A DNA stretch of 64,000 nt from Chloroflexota bacterium (GTDB lineage Bacteria > Chloroflexota > UBA11872 > VXOZ01), in contig OZ244775.1 in the NCBI GenBank assembly GCA_965219505.1, positions 1,101,929-1,165,928 of the forward strand, read 5' to 3'. The notes below the pieces were generated by a model, which was given only the letters and a program-made list of their open reading frames with translations, did not search any database and was not told the origin of the DNA. Within the stretch, counting starts at the first letter, position 1. Every line of letters starts with the position of its first letter. A program made the translations under genes and the position numbers. This document shows positions 12,101-47,207 of this stretch, piece after piece.

Positions 12101-15192
<3,092 letters not shown>

Positions 15193-15431
15193 GCTTCTAA
15201 TCGGCAAATTTGGAGTTCTGCAATCTGTGAATTATTCTCCAAGCGCGAGAATTCTATCACCTAGGTCGGGAAAGTCATGGCGGGTTTGTACGCCAGGCGT
15301 TCCCAATAAAGAACTGCGCATCGTTCACTATTGCACTTTGACATAACGCGTCGTCTCTTGATGTGCGCCTGCTACCCGTCGTTGGGCGGCCTCGCACGTA
15401 CGGCACGTTTCTAATATCCCAGTCAAGAATT

Positions 15432-15550
15432 CCTTGGGTGACAAGGCGAGGGGGGTACACCCGTTCCCATCCCGAACACGGTAGTTAAGCCCCTTAGCAC
15501 TGACGATACTGCACGGGCGACTGTGTGGGAAAATAGGCCGTTGCCCAAGG
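15432..15550 (+). rRNA. rrf: 5S ribosomal RNA
   Basis: CCTTGGGTGACAAGGCGAGGGGGGTACACCCGTTCCCATCCCGAACACGGTAGTTAAGCCCC...GGCCGTTGCCCAAGG with complementary ends; ~240-nt spacer after the 23S. Confidence 0.9.
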
Positions 15551-21694: not shown

Positions 21695-22645
21695 CTAGCC
21701 CACGGGATCTGCACGATGACGCACGGCATCTGCCAAAGCACGATTCACAAGGTGGGTATAGATTTGGGTTGTGGAAAGACTGGAGTGGCCGAGAAGTTCC
21801 TGTATGACGCGTAAGTTCACGTCATTGCGCAGCAAATCGACGGCGAAGCCGTGTCGTAACGCGTGGGGCGCCAGGTGTCCCACACCGGATCTCCGTGCAT
21901 GTTGCGTGATGATCTTGCGCACCATGCGCGGTGAGAGCCTCTTTTCCTTATCTTGGGCGTCATCTTCCGCCGTCATGCCGGGACGGTAGCGGATGAAAAG
22001 CGGTGGAAACTGATCCTCGCGGGTCTCCAAGTACTCGCGTACAGCTAGTTGTGCTCCCTGCTGAAGAAAGACCGGCCGGTCTTTGTCACCTTTGCCTCTG
22101 ATGATGATTTGCAGGAGTTGATCTGTGCCCAATCGCTCCACTGGGAGGTCAGTGCGATCGAGTGCGCACAGTTCCGCCAAGCGCAGCCCCGTTGAGAAGA
22201 AGAGCATGACGAGCGCTCGATCTCGCCTACCCTGGGGGGAATCCTGCGGAATGGAACGGAAGAGGTGCACGATGTCTTCAGCGGTGGGGACGTTGCGCGG
22301 CGCGTGGCGTTGCAGCTTAGGGAGTTGTATCTTGTCGTAGACAAGTACGGCACGGTCCTCGTGCAAGCTGAAGTATCGAAGCATACTGCGCAGGCACGAG
22401 GCGTATTTTGCCAAGGTCGATGCACCTGTATGCGTGCGCTTCCAGGCCAGGAAAGCCGTGATTGTGGGCAACGTGAGATCTTCAACGCGCGTCACCGGAC
22501 GGTTCGTCTTGCTGCAGTACGCGACCAGATCGGAAAGCATCTGCTTGTATGTCCGAACCGTCTGCGGCGAACGGTTTAGGTACCCACAATAGTCAAGAAA
22601 CTGACTGCAATCTTGCCAGAGCGGTGACGACTCTTGTGGATTCAT
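21695..22645 (-). CDS. Tyrosine site-specific recombinase, XerC/XerD-like (phage integrase family)
   Basis: IIRGKGDKDRPVFL ... HALRHGFAVDLL ... LLGHSSLSTTQIYTHL (R-K-H-R-H-Y catalytic set). No IntI-specific insertion, so it is not an integron integrase. Confidence 0.85.
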   Translation of the reverse strand: MNPQESSPLWQDCSQFLDYCGYLNRSPQTVRTYKQMLSDLVAYCSKTNRPVTRVEDLTLPTITAFLAWKRTHTGASTLAKYASCLRSMLRYFSLHEDRAVLVYDKIQLPKLQRHAPRNVPTAEDIVHLFRSIPQDSPQGRRDRALVMLFFSTGLRLAELCALDRTDLPVERLGTDQLLQIIIRGKGDKDRPVFLQQGAQLAVREYLETREDQFPPLFIRYRPGMTAEDDAQDKEKRLSPRMVRKIITQHARRSGVGHLAPHALRHGFAVDLLRNDVNLRVIQELLGHSSLSTTQIYTHLVNRALADAVRHRADPVG

Positions 22646-22950
22646 GCCGTATTCCTAGGGGAGTCTCTTAGAGCAAAGCGCAGAGAATTTATCACGATCT
22701 TTGTACGCCACAGTGGAGCAGGATGGGAAAAAGATCACCCTTGAATTGCAGGACGGTGAGGCGACACGCGCAGCAGAACATCCAGCGATTCAACGGCTAA
22801 TTGGCTACAACCCCTCAGGAATACCGTGCCGGGCCGGTAGCGCTGACTGGAGAAAACTCGTCGGTACGAGCATCAAGACGTCTCGCATGCAAAAGGTTTT
22901 GCCACTCCCGGCCACCGATGCGTGATGGCCTGAAGGACAATATCCAAAGC

Positions 22951-23005: not shown

Positions 23006-26000
23006 CTATTCTCCTGCAGGGTGGAGCACGACCCGTATATAGCGGTCGAACGTAAGGTATCGTTCGGCTGCCGCGACAATCTGGTCAAGGGTTACCGTAT
23101 CTAAGTGGTCTTCATACGTGTTTACCAGGTCAAAGGACTCACCTAGCTGGACAATAGCGCCAATTTGGCTCAGCCAGAACGAATTCTCGCGTAGCCGCTC
23201 CTCTCTGGATGAGCGCAGAAGCTCTTTGGCGGTGTCGAGGTACTTCTGTTCACCCCCGTTGACCAACCACTCCATCTCCTCCAGGACTACCCCAAAGAGT
23301 TCTTCGACGCGGTCGGGATCGCTATAGAACAGCGCATAAACCTGGTACTCAGTGTCAGGGGAAGAGGAACTCGAGGCGTTGACGCCGATACTGTAGGTAC
23401 CTCCTTCTTCCTCTCGCACTGCTTCTCGCAAACGGATTTGGAGGATGTCACCCATTAGGGCCAGGGCCAGTGCTTCCCCGCGACTCCACTCAAAATCGCC
23501 GGCAAATACCAAGACCTGCGTGCTACGGGGCTCGATGCCGTGGCGGACTGTGTGTTCTACCAGACCTGACGGCGGATCGATCTCGGGATCGCGCCACTCC
23601 TCAATGCGCCCAGAGTTCGGCAAACTGGCGAGGTAAGTAGCAGTGAACGAACGGAGAGCGTCCCAATCGAACGCACCCACGATCACAAATGTCGAGTCGG
23701 CAATGTCCGCAAACCGGTCGCTGTATACGGCCAAGGCGCGCTCCATATTGATCTCTTCCACGAGTTCGAGGGTGAGCGGCCGTCGTCGGAAGTGCCCTTG
23801 GCTGAGGACATCGCGCACTTTGTCAAAGAACACTTCGTCCGGATCTGTGAGGCGCGTCTCGGCGACATCGCGCATCCTCGCCGTGTAGGTTTCAAAGTAA
23901 ACCGGGTCTATGCGCGGATCGGTGGCATACAGGGTGACCAACTGGAACAAGGTTTCAAGATCCTGGGGGGATGCCCTGCCGGAGAAGCCTTCGTACAGAG
24001 TGCCGATATACGGTGATACCGAGACCCGCTTGCCTGCGAGCAGCTTGTCCAAGGTCACTAGGTCATGCTCGCCCGCACCGCTCCCAGCAACCAGGGCGGC
24101 GGCGTGCACGGCAGAAATGTAGTCCTCATCCGACACCAGGGAGTTGCCTCCCGGGCTGAATGACCGGAACAGAATCTGATCGTTGTTGAAGTCGGTCTGC
24201 TTGGCGAAAACGGTAATGCCGTTGGAAAGCGTCCATCTCACGGCATCAATAGACTCGATCTGCTGCTCCTCTGTGATGGATCCGGCGGCTGGAATACTCT
24301 CCAAGAGGGTTTTGTCGCCGGCTTCATCTTCGTAGCCTGCCACTTCCAGCGTGTGCGCGGCTACAAGCTGCTGCGTTACGGCCGCTGCTAGCTCGTCCTT
24401 TGTACCCGGCCCAATGTCTTCGGGTCCGGTCACGAGCAGGACTGTGTTGCCAGGCTCGGTCCAAGAGTCCGCCATTGCGTCGACCTCATCCAGGGTGATC
24501 TGCGGTAAGAGGGCCTGGACTAACTCCCACTCCATCTCGACGCCAGGTGCGACCGTGCCGTTCAAGAAGTGCTCGATATACTCCTCGGCGAGCGATCTGG
24601 AATTCAGTTGGCCGCGCCTTTCGTAGTAGCTTTCCATGGAGCTGAGCAAATTGACTTTCTCACGGTCCAGTTCGGAAGTGGTAAAGCCATGCTGTCGTAC
24701 ACGTTGGAGTTCCTCAAGCATGCTGCTAAGCCCGACTTCGACACCGTCCTTTTCAATTGCGAGCGAGAAGACGAGAATATCCGCGGGATCCGCAAGTCCC
24801 CCGCGTCCCGCACTCGCCCCAAGGTACGGTGGGTTAGGCGTGCGGCTAAGCTCGAACAGCCGCCCATTGAACATCATGAAAGACAGGCGTTCCACCAGAA
24901 TCTCGCGATAGGCTGCCAGCGTTTCGCCGTAACCGGAAGGAATCGTGCGCACTAAGAACGCACTTGTGCCCGTAGCCTCGGGATCGGTAAACACAGTTAC
25001 CCGCGGCTCTGCGTGGCTCGGCACGTCATAGCGGGGCCGTTCCGTAGGAGGTTGTACTGCGGCGCGTTCCTGCATCGCCTCCCCTTCAGGAGGCGGCGCA
25101 AAGTGGCGGATAATCGCAGCTTCCATTGCGGCTACGTCGACGTCGCCCACTACGACCACGGCCATCAGGTTGGGTCGATACCAGCGCTCGTAGAATGCGC
25201 GCAGGTCTTCAGCTTGAGCAGTTTCAAGGACCTCAAGGAGACCGATAGGCAGGCGTTCGGTATAGCGCGAGGAGCCGAATACTAAGGGAACCCAATGGTT
25301 AAGGAAGCGATCGCCGTACCCGAGCCTTGCGCGCCACTCCTCAATAACCACCAGGCGTTCCTTATCCACTTCTTCCGGATCGAAGGAGATGCCATAGGTC
25401 CAATCACTAAGAATCTGGAACGCGGTTTCCAAGATTTCGGGATCATCGGTGGGTACCTCAAGCTCGTACGTTGTGGTGTCAAACCCGGTTGAAGCGTTGA
25501 GGTCCGGGCCGAATTGGGTGCCGATTGATTCAAGGTATTCGACGATTTGCTGCTTCTCAAAACGATCGGTGCCATTGAAAGCCATATGCTCGGCGAAGTG
25601 GGCCAGCCCGCGCTCCGATTCCTCCTCAAGCACCGAACCGGCGCGCACTACCATCATCAGTTGCACCCGGTTCTTGGGTTCTTCGTTGTGCCGTATGTAG
25701 TAGGTGAGACCGTTGCTCAGCGTACCTTGCGTTACAACAGGATCAAGCGGCAATACCGAATCAGGTGTAAGCTCCGCAACCGGTATGGGTGTCGGTGCAA
25801 CTGGCTCCGGAGGCGGTGTGGGTGCGGGGACTTCTGTGGCAACCGGCGGGGTAGTTGGCGCAGGTGGGGGCTCCGCTACTGGCTGTACGCTACAGGCGAC
25901 GAGCAGCACCGATAGGAGCACGATAAAGACACTGACTACTGTTGATTTCAAGATTCTGCTCATTGCCTCTCCCATTTGAGTTTCAGGCCGACGCCTTAAT

Positions 26001-26032
26001 TGTAGCATCTGCACAGAGACTGCGTAAATCAA
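23006..26032 (-). CDS. Tandem-domain M16 (pitrilysin/insulinase-like) zinc peptidase, secreted lipoprotein
   Basis: 1008 aa. Signal plus lipobox LLVACS. Inverted zinc motif HFAEHMAFNGT (HxxEH). Two M16 active/inactive domain pairs. Pro/Thr-rich linker after the signal. Confidence 0.85.
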   Translation of the reverse strand: MIYAVSVQMLQLRRRPETQMGEAMSRILKSTVVSVFIVLLSVLLVACSVQPVAEPPPAPTTPPVATEVPAPTPPPEPVAPTPIPVAELTPDSVLPLDPVVTQGTLSNGLTYYIRHNEEPKNRVQLMMVVRAGSVLEEESERGLAHFAEHMAFNGTDRFEKQQIVEYLESIGTQFGPDLNASTGFDTTTYELEVPTDDPEILETAFQILSDWTYGISFDPEEVDKERLVVIEEWRARLGYGDRFLNHWVPLVFGSSRYTERLPIGLLEVLETAQAEDLRAFYERWYRPNLMAVVVVGDVDVAAMEAAIIRHFAPPPEGEAMQERAAVQPPTERPRYDVPSHAEPRVTVFTDPEATGTSAFLVRTIPSGYGETLAAYREILVERLSFMMFNGRLFELSRTPNPPYLGASAGRGGLADPADILVFSLAIEKDGVEVGLSSMLEELQRVRQHGFTTSELDREKVNLLSSMESYYERRGQLNSRSLAEEYIEHFLNGTVAPGVEMEWELVQALLPQITLDEVDAMADSWTEPGNTVLLVTGPEDIGPGTKDELAAAVTQQLVAAHTLEVAGYEDEAGDKTLLESIPAAGSITEEQQIESIDAVRWTLSNGITVFAKQTDFNNDQILFRSFSPGGNSLVSDEDYISAVHAAALVAGSGAGEHDLVTLDKLLAGKRVSVSPYIGTLYEGFSGRASPQDLETLFQLVTLYATDPRIDPVYFETYTARMRDVAETRLTDPDEVFFDKVRDVLSQGHFRRRPLTLELVEEINMERALAVYSDRFADIADSTFVIVGAFDWDALRSFTATYLASLPNSGRIEEWRDPEIDPPSGLVEHTVRHGIEPRSTQVLVFAGDFEWSRGEALALALMGDILQIRLREAVREEEGGTYSIGVNASSSSSPDTEYQVYALFYSDPDRVEELFGVVLEEMEWLVNGGEQKYLDTAKELLRSSREERLRENSFWLSQIGAIVQLGESFDLVNTYEDHLDTVTLDQIVAAAERYLTFDRYIRVVLHPAGE

Positions 26033-26432
26033 CTTAAGACAATAGACAGGTAAGCCAAGAGAGGGAAAATCGATTTTCCAACTACGTGTTTATAGTCTGG
26101 TGCCTCTAAGAGTGGTAGTCCGGCAAGAGGGAGTATGAGACCCAGCACTCTTTGCCCAATCGTAGTAATAATATGCTGCTCAATCCAGAGCGGCATGCAT
26201 TTCAGCGAACCAGATCCTTAGGCTTCTTCGTGGAATTCATCACTCTCACTCATACTTTGATGCATTATTCGCCTGCAGTTACTTTGAGTCTAATTTGTCG
26301 TTGTCTTTCCGGCTTTCTTCTCCCTTTGACATCCCACATACGAGAGCAGCAATATTGTCGTGGTGTTTTGGTTGCACGCGTACGTGTCGCGATTACGTAG
26401 TCGACCCTTACACCCGCGCTGATCCTTAGCAA

Positions 26433-27335
26433 TTAGGGAGCGTGGTCTGCCCGAATCCAAGAAAGAGCACTTTCAGCAGCATCCAATGCGCGCCTTGCTT
26501 CACACGGCCCCAATTCCTTAGCCTCGTGAACCACCGCATTTCGCAAATTATATAGGTCATTCTTCCACCGACTATGTACTTCAGTACCAACGAAACATCT
26601 CCCCTTAGCTTTAGGAAGATGTTCCTTCAGTAAATTCATTAAACCTGCCTCCAATATCCTATTGATCATTTCTTGGGAGGACGCCGGTGAAGTTGCTACC
26701 CTTGTATGGGCCTTCTCTGATAAATAATAAGCTCTAAGTAAGTTGTCGATAGCTAATTCAAATGCCGTCTCCGCCTCCACAACTGCAATTCGAAAGTCTT
26801 CAAATAGCAATGAGCGTTTAGCATTCAGCATCAAAAGGTCCACAAGGGGAAGAGGCCTCTCGTACGCCAGGTCCGACTTAGCTTGGTCATCAATGTCGCC
26901 AATCCGAGCCAAAGTAAGTCCAAGTCCCATGTCCAGTTGGAAGGAGTGAATCTCCGTTAAACTTCCATCATCGGCCTCCGTATACACGCCGTGGGAAGTG
27001 TCTGTAGCTCCCAATTCATGCAATGGAATGTGTCCAATATGAAATTCCTTAGTCGAGACCCTATAGACATCCAGCAACCTATTGATGGCCTTATGCGCAA
27101 TTGTCCTCAAGTTCTCGCCGTCGACACTGGCAGTTTCATGTGGGAAGCGAACATATACTCTTGTAAATGACACACGACCGACCCTATCGTACATCAACTC
27201 TACATTGTTGCCGGAGCGCCAGCATCGTTCGAATGCTATCTCATAGTCCTTTCCTTCAAGACGAATTGGAAACCAACCCCCTTTCCCCCAGATCAAAGGG
27301 TACGGAATCTCGAATTTGACCACTGTATACGGCAT
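26433..27335 (-). CDS. Hypothetical protein with C-terminal HEPN-like Rx4H motif; candidate Abi/RNase-type defence protein on a low-GC islet
   Basis: 300 aa. C-terminal helical region contains LYNLRNAVVHEAKE (R-x4-H, with N after R as in many HEPN RNases). The gene and its flanks (26040-27370) are ~47% GC against ~60% locally. Confidence 0.4.
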   Translation of the reverse strand: MPYTVVKFEIPYPLIWGKGGWFPIRLEGKDYEIAFERCWRSGNNVELMYDRVGRVSFTRVYVRFPHETASVDGENLRTIAHKAINRLLDVYRVSTKEFHIGHIPLHELGATDTSHGVYTEADDGSLTEIHSFQLDMGLGLTLARIGDIDDQAKSDLAYERPLPLVDLLMLNAKRSLLFEDFRIAVVEAETAFELAIDNLLRAYYLSEKAHTRVATSPASSQEMINRILEAGLMNLLKEHLPKAKGRCFVGTEVHSRWKNDLYNLRNAVVHEAKELGPCEARRALDAAESALSWIRADHAP

Positions 27336-27398
27336 AGGAATCCATCTCCAATTGAATTCGTATATCCAGCAATGATTCTATTGAAAGAATACTTCCCC

Positions 27399-28502
27399 TT
27401 ATCTGACCCCCAAACGCAGGTTGCGGTCCTGCAGGGGCAGGTCCATGCGTTGGCCGCTTCGATAGGACTCGCGAATGGCGATGCCGATTTCCAGGGCTTC
27501 GCGGCCGAATTCCCCCGGGCAGGTTGTCTCCACGCCTGCTTCGATAGAACGGGCGACGCCTTCGATGGCGTCAACCATCGAGCTGCGCGAATGCCATGGA
27601 AATGGGAACTGCCGCTGGAACTCACCGTCCAACTCTTCTTCGCCGCGACCCCATAGCTCGAACCAGGCGTGGTGGTTGCGGGTCAGGACGCGGCCCCGTT
27701 CACAAAGAAACTCCATAGTCCAACTCCGCGAGGCCGCGTGGGAGTTCAAGAACCCCAGGACGCCATTTGCATAGCCGATCATGCCGGAGCCGCCCTGGTC
27801 TTCATTGGTTTGCGCCATGGTTTCGTCGTCCATGTGCCCGTGGACCCAGCGCGCCGGGGAGCCGGCAAACAATGAAAAGAGGCACAGCGTGTGGCTGTGG
27901 ATATTGGAGAGCGGCAGCGGGCTATGACACACCATCGAGCGCAACGCGCCAATCTCGCCGCTGTCGATGAGGGCTTTGGCATTGGTGTACGGCGCGTACC
28001 AATTGAGATGGGCGGCAATGGCGAGGATGGTACCGGTGCGACGGCAGGTTTCTATCATTGAGTCGGCCTCGGCCAAAGTACGGGACATGGGCTTGGTGGC
28101 GTAGATTGCCTTGACACCGGATTCCGCTAATGCTTCGACAACCTCAGCGCGCTCTGCGGGCCTGGTGGTGACGCACACGATATCGGGTCGCTCTTTGGCC
28201 ACCATCTCTCGCAGGTCGGCGTAAAGGGCTTGCACTCCCCACCGTTCGCCAAAATACGCGAGCCGCTTGGGATCGACGTCCACACCGGCCACGAGCTCCA
28301 CATTGCGCGCCTCGATGATTCCCGGAGCATGGGCCCACGGCCACGGATAGTGCGGCTTGCCAACGTGCTCGTCGTCGATGGTACTGCCCATGCGGCCACA
28401 CCCTACCACGGCAGCGCGGTAATTGCCCTTCGGCGCCGTAGCGGCCACAACCTCGTGCGCACGGGGGCCTTGCCACTCCGGTTCACTCGAGCGAATTCTC
28501 AT
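27399..28502 (-). CDS. Gfo/Idh/MocA family NAD(P)-dependent oxidoreductase
   Basis: Rossmann N-terminus AAVVGCGRMGSTIDDEH...PDIVCVTTRPAERAEVVEALAESGVKAIYATKP, then a Gfo/Idh/MocA C-terminal alpha/beta domain. Confidence 0.8.
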   Translation of the reverse strand: MRIRSSEPEWQGPRAHEVVAATAPKGNYRAAVVGCGRMGSTIDDEHVGKPHYPWPWAHAPGIIEARNVELVAGVDVDPKRLAYFGERWGVQALYADLREMVAKERPDIVCVTTRPAERAEVVEALAESGVKAIYATKPMSRTLAEADSMIETCRRTGTILAIAAHLNWYAPYTNAKALIDSGEIGALRSMVCHSPLPLSNIHSHTLCLFSLFAGSPARWVHGHMDDETMAQTNEDQGGSGMIGYANGVLGFLNSHAASRSWTMEFLCERGRVLTRNHHAWFELWGRGEEELDGEFQRQFPFPWHSRSSMVDAIEGVARSIEAGVETTCPGEFGREALEIGIAIRESYRSGQRMDLPLQDRNLRLGVR

Positions 28503-28814: not shown

Positions 28815-29495
28815 CTATCGACGCCCTGTTCTTGCATAAGCCACGAATCCGCCCAATCCTACAAACAAAATTGCTGCGGCAAGCACCAGGGCAAAAACCC
28901 ACCCAACAACTATAGGGCTCTCCGAGTCCACAGGCGCTGGGCCTCTCGTGCCAGCTTGAGGAGACTGACCCTCTCCCAGGGCGTCAATGTCAGCTTGAGC
29001 TTCCGCAAGGAGCGCAGTTCGACTGCAAATGCTCGCCGTGTAGCTGTCGTCACCATAGTGGCTGTCGGACGCGTACACGACGTACTCCTCTCCTTCGACG
29101 AATGTGAACCCGCAACTCCCGCCCGTTGGTGGTGTGGTGATGTACATTACCTCATGTACGGTTCCCTTCCAAACGGTGCTGACATTCATGCCGATCGTCG
29201 AGCGGTCTTCAGGGGAGGCAGACTTTGCTTCTGGGTCATAGGAATGGACAACCGAAAAGACTCTCCCTGCAAATACCGCTACAGATTTGTCAAGTTCTTC
29301 TGTAGGAGTTCCAGGTATAACACACTTACACGCGTAAACGTGCCCAACGGTTATAAGAAACCAAAGGAACGCCAACACGAGCGCGAGACTCGCTACCGCT
29401 ATAATTGCAGTCGAGAACCCAACTCTTCTATGTTCTGCAGTCTTTATCGTCACAACGTACTCCTTTGCTACCGCCACTTGCTGGACAAACTGCAA
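28815..29495 (-). CDS. Hypothetical bitopic membrane protein with Cys-rich (CxC...SCGF) ectodomain, TIMP/NTR-like (weak)
   Basis: N-terminal TM (AIIAVASLALVLAFLWFLITV), then CKC immediately after the TM, and a C-terminal TM (IVVGWVFALVLAAAILFVGLGG). Confidence 0.35.
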   Translation of the reverse strand: MQFVQQVAVAKEYVVTIKTAEHRRVGFSTAIIAVASLALVLAFLWFLITVGHVYACKCVIPGTPTEELDKSVAVFAGRVFSVVHSYDPEAKSASPEDRSTIGMNVSTVWKGTVHEVMYITTPPTGGSCGFTFVEGEEYVVYASDSHYGDDSYTASICSRTALLAEAQADIDALGEGQSPQAGTRGPAPVDSESPIVVGWVFALVLAAAILFVGLGGFVAYARTGRR

Positions 29496-29557
29496 GAGAT
29501 TCAGTAGTAATTCTCACTATATTGTCCCGTATGCTGTAACGCAAGAGTGCCCATTTA

Positions 29558-30214
29558 TCAGTCGGGATCCGCTGATTCACCGGTGTAGAACGCGGTTGTG
29601 CGCATTGCCGCAGCACCTGCGACTTCGGGGTCCGTGCCGGCTGCGACGGCAGCGTGCGCCCAGCCCTGGCTGCTGCCCGTGATGAACGACTTGCCATCCG
29701 GTGAGGTGGCAAACGCCATCTCGTCCGGCTTTGGCTCATGCGGCCGCGCGACGTGGAAGGCGAGGCCAAGGAAACCCATCTCCCAACCGACGCCGACCGC
29801 GCCCGGCCCGTATGCGTCCCAGTGTGGCGATAGGAGCGTAGTGTGCGTGAGCGCGAGCCGTATGCCGGCAGTTCCATCATCCGAGAGACGTACCTCCACC
29901 CAACTGACGTCTCCAGCGAACTCCCATGTAAGCTCGTAGTGCGATAGTGCCTCACACGCCGTGATCACCCCGCCTGCATTGCCTTCCAACTGATAGCGCC
30001 CCCCGAGTGTAAGCTCGCCGCTGATGCCCGTGAACCAACGCGGAATGCGCTCAATATTCGTTACGGCGTCCCACAGGTTCTCAACCGCCGTTGGGTGGCT
30101 GCGGGAAAGTGTGACGGCGCTAGCGGGTCGTCCGTCGCGCTCCAGTAGCGAGACGGAGCGGTCCATGGCATTGAGATGGCTATCGGCATCAAAGTTCATG
30201 GCACTTTCTTCCAC
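29558..30214 (-). CDS. SRPBCC-superfamily protein (AHSA1/polyketide cyclase-like)
   Basis: Pattern ...TAVENLWDAVTNIERIPRWFTGISGELTLGGRYQLEGNAGG... is typical of the Aha1-like SRPBCC fold. Confidence 0.5.
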   Translation of the reverse strand: MEESAMNFDADSHLNAMDRSVSLLERDGRPASAVTLSRSHPTAVENLWDAVTNIERIPRWFTGISGELTLGGRYQLEGNAGGVITACEALSHYELTWEFAGDVSWVEVRLSDDGTAGIRLALTHTTLLSPHWDAYGPGAVGVGWEMGFLGLAFHVARPHEPKPDEMAFATSPDGKSFITGSSQGWAHAAVAAGTDPEVAGAAAMRTTAFYTGESADPD

Positions 30215-35201: not shown

Positions 35202-35252
35202 TGTTTCAGTGAAGTTCGTACTACAAGCCTCCGGGTCTGAGGTGCGAGTGGG

Positions 35253-35325
35253 TGGAGATGAGGAGACTCGAACTCCTGCCCCCCTCCTTGCAAAGGAGGT
35301 GCTCTCCCAACTGAGCTATGTCCCC
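35253..35325 (-). tRNA. tRNA-Ala(TGC)-like second copy, probably a pseudo-tRNA
   Basis: 73 nt identical to the 44795-44870 tRNA-Ala over the D-arm, anticodon arm and T-arm. The 5' acceptor strand is GGGGACA against 3' CATCTCC, so the two basal pairs are mismatched (C6-A67, A7-C66). The genomic 3' end is CCC rather than CCA. Confidence 0.5.
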
Positions 35326-44794: not shown

Positions 44795-44870
44795 TGGTGG
44801 AGATGAGGAGACTCGAACTCCTGACCCCCTCCTTGCAAAGGAGGTGCTCTCCCAACTGAGCTACATCCCC
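44795..44870 (-). tRNA. tRNA-Ala(TGC), CCA encoded, G3:U70 present
   Basis: GGGGATGTAGCTCAGTTGGGAGAGCACCTCCTTTGCAAGGAGGGGGTCAGGAGTTCGAGTCTCCTCATCTCCACCA. Perfect cloverleaf, anticodon TGC. Confidence 0.9.
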
Positions 44871-45088
44871 GTGACTGGCAGCCGCGCAGAGCGCTAAAGG
44901 CGCATCGAAACCCCTCAACAAGCCCCAGCACGCCCCGGGCCGCGATGGAGGCATCGGTTCGTGTCTGCCGGAATTCTCAAATGCTTTGCAGGCGAAAGTT
45001 GAAAGGGTTGCGCAGTGAAAACTATCCCTACAATGCTCGTTCCGGCCTGTGCCGCATTTATAAAGAGGCTGCGGTTTCGCTGCCGTCG

Positions 45089-45166
45089 TGGTGGGCCACT
45101 GTGGATTTGAACCACAGACCTCGCCCTTATCAGGGGCGCGCTCTAACCAAGCTGAGCTAGTGGCCC
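45089..45166 (-). tRNA. tRNA-Ile(GAT), CCA encoded
   Basis: GGGCCACTAGCTCAGCTTGGTTAGAGCGCGCCCCTGATAAGGGCGAGGTCTGTGGTTCAAATCCACAGTGGCCCACCA. Anticodon GAT. Confidence 0.9.
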
Positions 45167-45676
45167 GCAGAATACGCTGTAAAGCCAGTCTCTTGTTTAT
45201 TGTACCACCCTTGGCTTGGCCTGCACGTCGCCAATTCAGTGGCAGGCAAATCGCATTTCTCACAGGGGGAATATAGCGCAGCAAACGCCGGTATGCAACT
45301 TTGCCAAGCGGCTGTATGGTGGACAAATCGACGCCATGAGTCCGGCCGTGTATCGGTGAGTCAGCTATCGAATTTCGCGCACAGAGTGGTCAGGCAAGTG
45401 GGACCAAGTCTGCGGGCAGGTGCAGATTGTCACTCGGCTGAGACATGACTAGACGCACATTCGGCACTTCGACCGGTAGGTTTGGAGGGAGGGTAAAGGA
45501 GTGGAGTGAGGTACAGAAAGATCCCTCAGTGGGGAGAGGGATCGTTGTTTTAGGGGATATAGAGCGATGGAAAAGGAGGCTGGCTTAGCAGGTGGAGGGT
45601 GATGAAGGGGGTGTTGGGAAGGAGAGAAAGGGGAAATAAGAAAAGGGATAGGTGGTAGGTGGGTAAAAGAACCCTA

Positions 45677-47207
<1,531 letters not shown>

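Follow-up and report, generated by a model that had tools for sequence, protein, structure and literature searches.

Among abortive-infection and toxin effectors, HEPN RNases that carry fused sensor regions form a major class, and how infection is sensed is an open question for most of them. We analyzed a 64,000-nucleotide (nt) stretch of a Chloroflexota genome (contig OZ244775.1, positions 1,101,929 to 1,165,928; referred to here as the window) in which an islet of low guanine-plus-cytosine (GC) content carries one gene, on the minus strand at 26433..27335, for a protein of 300 amino acids (aa). The C-terminal half of this protein almost certainly has the HEPN fold, and it is joined to an N-terminal domain of a different kind. 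We favor the reading that the protein is a stand-alone RNase that acts in antiphage defense or as a toxin, and we place the probability of this reading at about 0.55. Loci that carry homologs of the gene are numbered L001 onward, L001 being the syntenic counterpart of the window.

Comparison with described HEPN systems

ApeA is an abortive-infection tRNA anticodon nuclease that deoxydinucleotides activate by binding between the N-terminal and HEPN domains (bioRxiv 10.64898/2026.01.26.701840). Like the candidate, it consists of one polypeptide chain whose C-terminal domain is a HEPN RNase and whose N-terminal region or regions are noncatalytic, and it has no antitoxin. It is plausible that the ligand-switched ApeA model could serve as a working model for the candidate by analogy. 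However, the two proteins are built differently. ApeA has about 583 to 593 aa, is mostly helical, comprises three domains with a split HEPN domain that has large insertions, and assembles into decamers or dodecamers, whereas the candidate has 300 aa and combines a compact HEPN domain with a sheet-based N-terminal domain. Membership in the ApeA family (Pfam model HEPN_Apea, PF18739; structures 9HXB, 9HXD, and 9HXI) was rejected because there was no PADLOC ApeA or HEPN_Apea match at E ≤ 10, the size was wrong, and the N-terminal fold was different. The ApeA model was also absent from the PADLOC matches of 81 divergent relatives of the protein.

HepS, a single-protein HEPN abortive-infection system of the Gifsy-1 prophage (structure 9OIK), is a tRNA anticodon nuclease activated by siphovirus tail-tip proteins (PMC13043305). 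HepS has 218 aa and is prophage encoded, whereas the candidate family has an extra N-terminal domain and was not found in phage and viral collections. No sequence similarity between the candidate and HepS was detected.

HepT and other minimal HEPN proteins (2HSB, 1UFB, 1WOL, 5YEP, and 7AE2) have about 120 to 140 aa and are encoded beside an MNT (nucleotidyltransferase) antitoxin. The candidate differs from them in an added 145-residue N-terminal region and in having no tyrosine two residues after the motif histidine (H270-E-A). A HEPN-MNT (HepT) toxin-antitoxin system was rejected because the protein has 300 aa in two domains and because no MNT neighbor was present in the window or in the nine loci with Pfam-annotated genes (L001 to L009). 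RnlA and LsoA are paired with RnlB- or Dmd-type antitoxins and have a larger, different architecture. Some members of the RNase LS family do have an N-terminal TBP-like domain, but the similarity of the candidate N-terminal domain to TBP was in the grey zone and no stronger than its similarity to the substrate domains of FAD oxidases. RNase LS (RnlA/LsoA) was rejected because HEPN_RnaseLS matched neither the protein nor any of the 81 relatives and because there was no conserved small neighbor. The CARF-HEPN proteins Csm6 and Csx1 were rejected because the N-terminal fold is not the Rossmann-like CARF fold.

The nearest architecture on paper is that of the MAE_18760 family, in which a beta-rich N-terminal domain of about 121 aa (MAE_18760-NTD1) is fused to HEPN in an arrangement that resembles Abi proteins (Anantharaman et al. 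2013, PMC3710099). The two N-terminal domains are alike by description only, and none of the 81 family members matched the Pfam MAE_28990/MAE_18760-type HEPN model at E ≤ 0.01. By analogy, the candidate would work like ApeA, HepS, and the Abi-type HEPN proteins while standing outside every named family that could be tested.

HEPN fold and predicted catalytic motif

AlphaFold2 with the family alignment yielded a model (predicted local distance difference test [pLDDT], 81.9; predicted template modeling score, 0.78) with a five-stranded sheet (residues 4 to 64) and a long helix (70 to 95), a low-confidence linker (113 to 138), and an all-helical part (150 to 295). An earlier note on this DNA, made from the sequence alone, had described the C-terminal region as all-helical and as carrying a HEPN-type motif. 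The model bears out the helical character and contains the four-helix, up-and-down HEPN core of two alpha-hairpins. The HEPN domain starts near residue 146 to 150 and is placed at residues 146 to 300 (26436..26900, minus strand). Within it, residues 211 to 250, approximately, form a variable loop plus two short helices, a segment whose length differs among homologs.

The string LRNAVVHE (residues 264 to 271) contains the predicted catalytic motif, R265-N-A-V-V-H270 (Rx4H; 26526..26543, minus strand), as read from the sequence. The protein has three Rx4-6H strings, at residues 59, 92, and 265, so the occurrence of such a string is not significant by itself and the informative tests are conservation and structural position. 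Only the C-terminal string is conserved. All 81 divergent homologs have R-x4-H, most of them as R-N-x3-H, and R265 and H270 are the sole invariant columns in their alignment; both are also among the 27 columns invariant in 25 close homologs. An Rx4H motif lies near the C terminus in 130 of 133 full-length homologs, and the remaining three have C-terminal extensions. The identification of LRNAVVHE as a HEPN signature in the earlier note is therefore upheld. The next most conserved residues in the 81 divergent homologs are W257 (98%), then D50, N85, and R92 (93% each), and P11 and E193 (91% each).

In the published definition (PMC3710099), a catalytically competent HEPN domain has Rx4-6H in which the arginine is followed by a polar residue (N, D, or H), an acidic residue farther upstream, and an insert that separates helices 2 and 3. 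The polar residue is present as N266, and the variable segment at residues 211 to 250, approximately, matches the insert. The acidic residue is probably E193, at the end of the helix-1 motif E-A-E-T-A-F-E (residues 187 to 193; 26757..26777, minus strand), which is invariant in close homologs. Because these features fit the published definition, neither of the findings that the earlier note had named as contradicting it, a fold other than HEPN or a motif not conserved among homologs, was obtained.

Links to characterized families came through distant relatives. Pfam searches with the 81 relatives returned HEPN_Apea for 7, HEPN_Swt1 for 5, RiboL-PSP-HEPN for 4, HEPN for 3, Ymh for 2, and AbiU2 for 1 (E = 6.8e-9), and distant members also matched the HEPN parts of the PADLOC Csx1/Csm6 CARF+HEPN models. 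The window protein gave nothing usable against PDB sequences, and a full-family profile gave only noise-level matches, including TT1696 at E = 1.9. When only the HEPN half was used as a profile, Ec2ApeA came out first among PDB sequences, in a marginal alignment (E = 0.063) that pairs W257...R265-N-x3-H270-x-G with W493...R502-N-x3-H507-x-G, so that R265 and H270 fall on Ec2ApeA R502 and H507. The R502A variant of ApeA is a published catalytic-dead mutant in which defense is abolished, and Ec2ApeA W493 is next to the ligand-pocket residues R490 and Q494. W257, eight residues before R265 (26565..26567, minus strand), may be the counterpart of W493 beside this pocket. The HEPN domain is predicted to be catalytically competent, and we consider this probable.

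The N-terminal domain

The earlier note had proposed an N-terminal domain of about 170 aa that could not be assigned. The domain is smaller than that. It comprises about 110 aa (residues 1 to 110; 27006..27335, minus strand), an alpha+beta arrangement in which the long helix packs behind the sheet, the five strands of which are antiparallel. The rest is a variable linker (residues 111 to 145; 26901..27005, minus strand) that is predicted to be disordered and has a pLDDT of less than 50 at residues 113 to 138, the highest column entropy, and 66% identity to the syntenic copy. The domain did prove unassigned, with no match in the profile libraries and no close structure.

The two domains occur together. 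An exhaustive HMMER search recovered 176 cluster representatives at E ≤ 1e-3, most of which match residues 40 to 295, approximately, and thus both domains at once. The two-domain architecture is fixed in the family. The N-terminal domain also equals the HEPN domain in conservation: for the N-terminal and HEPN domains, respectively, mean column entropy is 1.39 and 1.39 in close homologs and 2.75 and 2.67 in distant ones. Between the window and L001 the N-terminal domain is 78% identical versus 65% for the HEPN domain, with ratios of nonsynonymous to synonymous divergence (dN/dS) of 0.125 and 0.227, respectively.

The residues conserved across the family are P11, D50, G53, N85, Y91, and R92. Several lie in the helix motif I-N-R-L-L-D-V-Y-R (residues 84 to 92; 27060..27086, minus strand), in which N85, R86, V90, Y91, and R92 are invariant in the 25 close homologs and N85 and R92 are at least 93% conserved in the 81 divergent ones. 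D50, R51, N85, R86, Y91, and R92 are kept even in haloarchaeal plasmid homologs with 26 to 27% identity. Such a pattern points to a ligand, substrate, or interface that is itself conserved, and away from a fast-evolving phage-protein sensor. A more specific proposal is that the N-terminal domain is a new sensor module, in which D50, N85, Y91, and R92, together with W257, would line a pocket. A conserved small molecule or nucleic acid fragment bound there would switch on the RNase allosterically. We regard this proposal as speculative and rather unlikely. If it is true, Chloroflexota and haloarchaeal plasmids would share a minimal counterpart, of 300 residues, to the ligand-gated ApeA.

The gene and its low-GC islet

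The gene for the two-domain protein (26433..27335, minus strand) is supported by the program-made list of open reading frames (ORFs), by homologs, and by purifying selection. It has an ATG start and a stop codon at 26433-26435, and the N terminus of the protein, MPYTV..., agrees with the N termini of homologs. Upstream is an AT-rich spacer of 63 nt (27336..27398, minus strand; GC, 0.365) with GGAG 10 nt before the ATG, and downstream is a low-GC noncoding spacer (26033..26432, minus strand; GC, 0.465). The GC content of the gene is 0.472, as is that of its third codon positions (GC3), compared with a GC of 0.575 and GC3 of 0.65 in the flanking M16 peptidase gene and 0.621 and 0.73 in the flanking Gfo/Idh/MocA oxidoreductase gene. 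From 26040 to 27400 the GC content is 0.465, against a window mean of 0.574 (standard deviation, 0.028; z = −3.9), and the lowest-GC stretch of 1,361 nt in the 64-kb window, which starts at 26025 (GC, 0.463), nearly coincides with this interval. The earlier note had described an islet of about 47% GC in a chromosome of about 60% GC. The islet is as described and is the lowest stretch in the window; the background is about 57%, and the contrast is real all the same.

Few signals accompany the gene. A promoter-like site for the M16 peptidase (TTTACG-18-TACAAT) is at 26028-25999, carried by the distal end of the downstream spacer and positions 25999-26032. No sigma-70-like promoter was found in the 63-nt spacer directly upstream of the HEPN gene, and no terminator-like site was found. 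Neither spacer contains a conserved small ORF or an alignable RNA in comparison with L001 and by tblastx, and no tRNA or Rfam element was found in or beside the islet. We found no direct or inverted repeats at the flanks that would hint at a transposon or an integration scar, only short repeats at chance level.

Comparison with L001 bears on the age of the islet. The flanking proteins of L001 are 93% and 92% identical to those of the window, and at the same site L001 has a HEPN protein that is 71 to 73% identical, encoded by a gene that is also low in GC (0.48). In all nine of the other loci tested, the HEPN gene is 6 to 11 GC points below its flanks, which indicates that low GC content is a property of the family. 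The earlier note had taken the composition as a sign of recent horizontal acquisition. "Recent" is unsupported, given the diverged copy at the same site and the generality of the low GC content. Either the islet predates the split between the window and L001 genomes, or a diverged allele has taken its place at that site.

Nucleotide identity between the window and L001 is 0.80 to 0.98 in the flanks, 0.61 to 0.84 in the gene, and 0.41 to 0.55 in the noncoding DNA of the islet. Synonymous divergence (dS) is 1.1 for the HEPN gene and 0.40 and 0.74 for the flanks, and dN/dS is 0.17 for the HEPN gene and 0.07 to 0.10 for the flanks. The HEPN gene is thus under purifying selection and is evolving several-fold faster than its neighbors, a rate that may be typical of accessory conflict genes. 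The upstream spacer is not conserved with L001 and the downstream spacer aligns only over its last 140 nt or so; the sole conserved noncoding block is the M16 promoter-like region. Identity to L001 drops gradually within the ends of the flanking genes, at 27436-27535 (0.74) and 25766-25959 (0.63 to 0.70), and then collapses in the islet. Recombination breakpoints inside the flanking genes would be consistent with this gradual drop, as would a relaxed constraint on the signal peptide region of the peptidase. An empty site was not found among 44 metagenomic loci with orthologs of the oxidoreductase (57 to 77% identity), all of which lack both the HEPN gene and an adjacent M16 peptidase gene. Synteny is already lost in the next-closest relatives, and therefore no clean empty-site comparison was available.

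A tyrosine recombinase of 316 aa with Phage_integrase/SAM_1 domains is encoded at about 21700-22650 (minus strand; counterpart of L001 10715-11665), some 4.7 kb downstream of the HEPN gene and beyond the M16 peptidase gene, which has native GC content. This recombinase is probably Xer-like, and it has no established link to the islet.

Distribution and gene neighborhoods

The family is patchily distributed. A database of 5.8 billion clusters contained 41 homologs, all unnamed or annotated as hypothetical, some of them from Chloroflexota metagenome-assembled genomes (MAGs). A scan of 185,579 species genomes with the close-homolog alignment placed the close family in 10 loci, all in Chloroflexota (SAR202, Dehalococcoidia, and Anaerolineae). 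Full-length homologs with 26 to 27% identity, annotated as hypothetical, are present on two haloarchaeal plasmids. One, on a Halomicrobium salinisoli plasmid (NZ_CP084465.1; L021, 6983-7921), is near ArdC-like genes and genes for type IV secretion system coupling, and the other, on a Halalkalicoccus jeotgali plasmid (NC_014302.1; L022, 4051-5076), is near a P4-family primase gene. The family thus spans the boundary between bacteria and archaea on mobile DNA.

Neighbors were clustered over 21 loci, the window and 20 loci with homologs. No neighbor is universal and no partner gene is conserved, as expected of the single-gene candidate that the earlier note had proposed. In the window and L001 the HEPN gene is between the oxidoreductase and M16 peptidase genes, and in L003, L004/5, and L007/13 the homolog is alone amid housekeeping genes. 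Elsewhere the company is different. In L002 and L006 the homolog is beside serine recombinases and a relaxase-like gene and directly upstream of genes for a type III methyltransferase (E = 3.7e-154), an NsnB-like ATPase (7e-51), and a Res helicase. In L012, L014, and L017 it is directly upstream of type III Mod and Res genes. It adjoins a gene for an HKD+Snf2 protein (1.9e-54) in L008 to L011, with an MmeI-type enzyme and ParE nearby in L008 and a NACHT protein in L009, and it adjoins a replication-relaxation protein in L015 and a PLD nuclease-like protein in L016. Roughly half of the independent contexts are defense islands or mobile DNA.

Among these loci, L012, with annotated flanks, has the homolog between DruE (5e-281)/DruA (1e-133) and type III Mod (2.5e-159)-PIN-Res. 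The region 829-15123 of L012 (Dehalococcoidia MAG CAZZAN010000001.1) is a compact defense island that combines a Druantia-type DruE-DruA pair with type III restriction-modification (R-M). Its PIN-domain gene is inserted between Mod and Res, and L002 and L006 have the same HEPN-Mod-Res core with the NsnB-like ATPase instead.

Proposed function and alternative explanations

We read the protein as a latent, stand-alone, metal-independent HEPN endoribonuclease with no cognate antitoxin gene, most likely an antiphage or toxin RNase. The case for a defense or toxin role rests on the fold, the motif, and the neighborhood, and we give a role in defense or abortive infection somewhat better than even odds. 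ApeA and HepS provide precedents for an abortive-infection system made of one HEPN protein. Solved HEPN enzymes suggest, by analogy, that two copies of the domain would pair to form a composite site of R265, N266, and H270, aided by E193. This site would cut RNA without a metal, most likely in tRNA anticodon loops or mRNA, and would leave a 2',3'-cyclic phosphate; metal-free cleavage with such ends is a feature of HEPN enzymes (PMC3710099). The N-terminal domain, with D50, N85, Y91, and R92, may hold the nuclease inactive until a conserved trigger or substrate binds. With no antitoxin gene present, gating of the activity or recruitment of the substrate presumably falls to the N-terminal domain and linker. 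Activation would arrest translation and lead to abortive infection or growth arrest.

Several observations weigh against this reading. In searches of Pfam, NCBIfam, PADLOC, and PHROGs the window protein had no matches, and no HEPN or defense profile matched it at E ≤ 10. The HEPN profile search that the earlier note had suggested as a check thus gave a divided answer, since individual distant relatives do match six HEPN Pfam families. Foldseek found no PDB match at E < 1e-3, and the best PDB match of the HEPN-half profile, to Ec2ApeA, was marginal. The upstream acidic residue departs from the textbook E-x3-[KR] form, the position four residues after E193 being D197 rather than the typical lysine or arginine. 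No homologs were found in phage genomes or viral contigs, and in the window and several other loci the gene is solitary amid housekeeping genes. The conservation of the N-terminal domain argues against a fast-evolving sensor of phage proteins and leaves sensing, substrate binding, or oligomerization as its possible roles.

The protein might instead be a toxin with a partner antitoxin, either a small protein or an RNA, that went unrecognized. This is improbable. There is no neighbor common to the independent contexts, and no MNT, RnlB-like, or ParA-like gene adjoins. Both spacers in the window fail to align with the syntenic locus except at the peptidase promoter region, tblastx found no shared ORF, and there is no Rfam match. 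An ORF of 110 aa is limited to one syntenic group.

An accessory or backup nuclease of R-M systems, as PrrC is with EcoprrI, is about equally improbable. Such a nuclease would be held in check by an adjacent type III R-M system or act once that system has failed, and the window copy would be an orphan. In five loci (L002, L006, L012, L014, and L017) the homolog precedes, on the same strand and by about 150 nt, a gene for a type III methyltransferase of about 900 aa that is followed by a Res helicase-nuclease gene, and R-M operons house many HEPN families (PMC3710099). However, these five loci represent only two related arrangements and may reflect one mobile module. Most contexts have no R-M genes (the window and L001, L003, L004/5, L007/13, L008 to L011, L015, L016, and the plasmids), and the window copy is under purifying selection with no R-M neighbor.

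A housekeeping protein for RNA processing or RNA binding, unrelated to conflict and with the N-terminal sheet as a nucleic acid platform, would account for the purifying selection and for the position of the gene amid housekeeping genes, where it is possibly cotranscribed with the upstream oxidoreductase gene, given the 63-nt gap with no promoter-like site. Such a role is very unlikely. The family is very sparse, with its 41 close homologs among 5.8 billion clusters and its 10 loci in 185,579 species genomes, and the HEPN gene is missing from 44 of 44 loci with orthologs of the neighboring oxidoreductase. Its position varies among genomes, and it occurs on plasmids and in defense islands. In all genomes tested it stands out in composition, and its rate of divergence exceeds that of its flanks several-fold. 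Least likely of all is a noncatalytic HEPN domain that serves as a ligand- or protein-binding regulator, as in MtlR or the HEPN domains of nucleotidyltransferases, because noncatalytic HEPN families have lost Rx4-6H wholly or in part (PMC3710099), whereas here the arginine and histidine are invariant in 81 of 81 homologs.

Other features of the window

The rRNA genes of the window are unlinked: 23S and 5S rRNA genes are at 12102-15549 (plus strand), and the 16S rRNA gene is about 30 kb away at 45678-47207 (minus strand). The 16S unit, with tRNA-Ile and tRNA-Ala, spans 44795-47207 (minus strand), and a solitary second tRNA-Ala(TGC) gene is at 35251-35325 (minus strand).

An ORF of 226 aa at 28815-29495 (minus strand) encodes a hydrophobic N-terminal segment followed by ACKCVIPGTPTEE, and its L001 ortholog has no Pfam match. 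The C-x-C start presumably recalls the N terminus of a TIMP/NTR-type domain. The GC content dips to 0.48 at 29200-29599, in the region of this ORF.

Implications

What is new here is an unnamed HEPN family that pairs a textbook catalytic motif with an uncharacterized, co-conserved N-terminal domain; the kind of system is familiar. The family is compact, at 300 aa, is unnamed in every library searched, and occurs in uncultured marine-type Chloroflexota and on haloarchaeal plasmids. The finding would not surprise a specialist, yet it provides a compact candidate that can be tested. If the protein is not a defense protein, it is one more hypothetical HEPN protein, and the gain is an annotation for about 180 protein clusters. 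If it is a defense protein, it would offer a tractable small model for sensor-effector coupling and would add to the defense content of SAR202/Dehalococcoidia and Halobacteria, in which few systems have been characterized.

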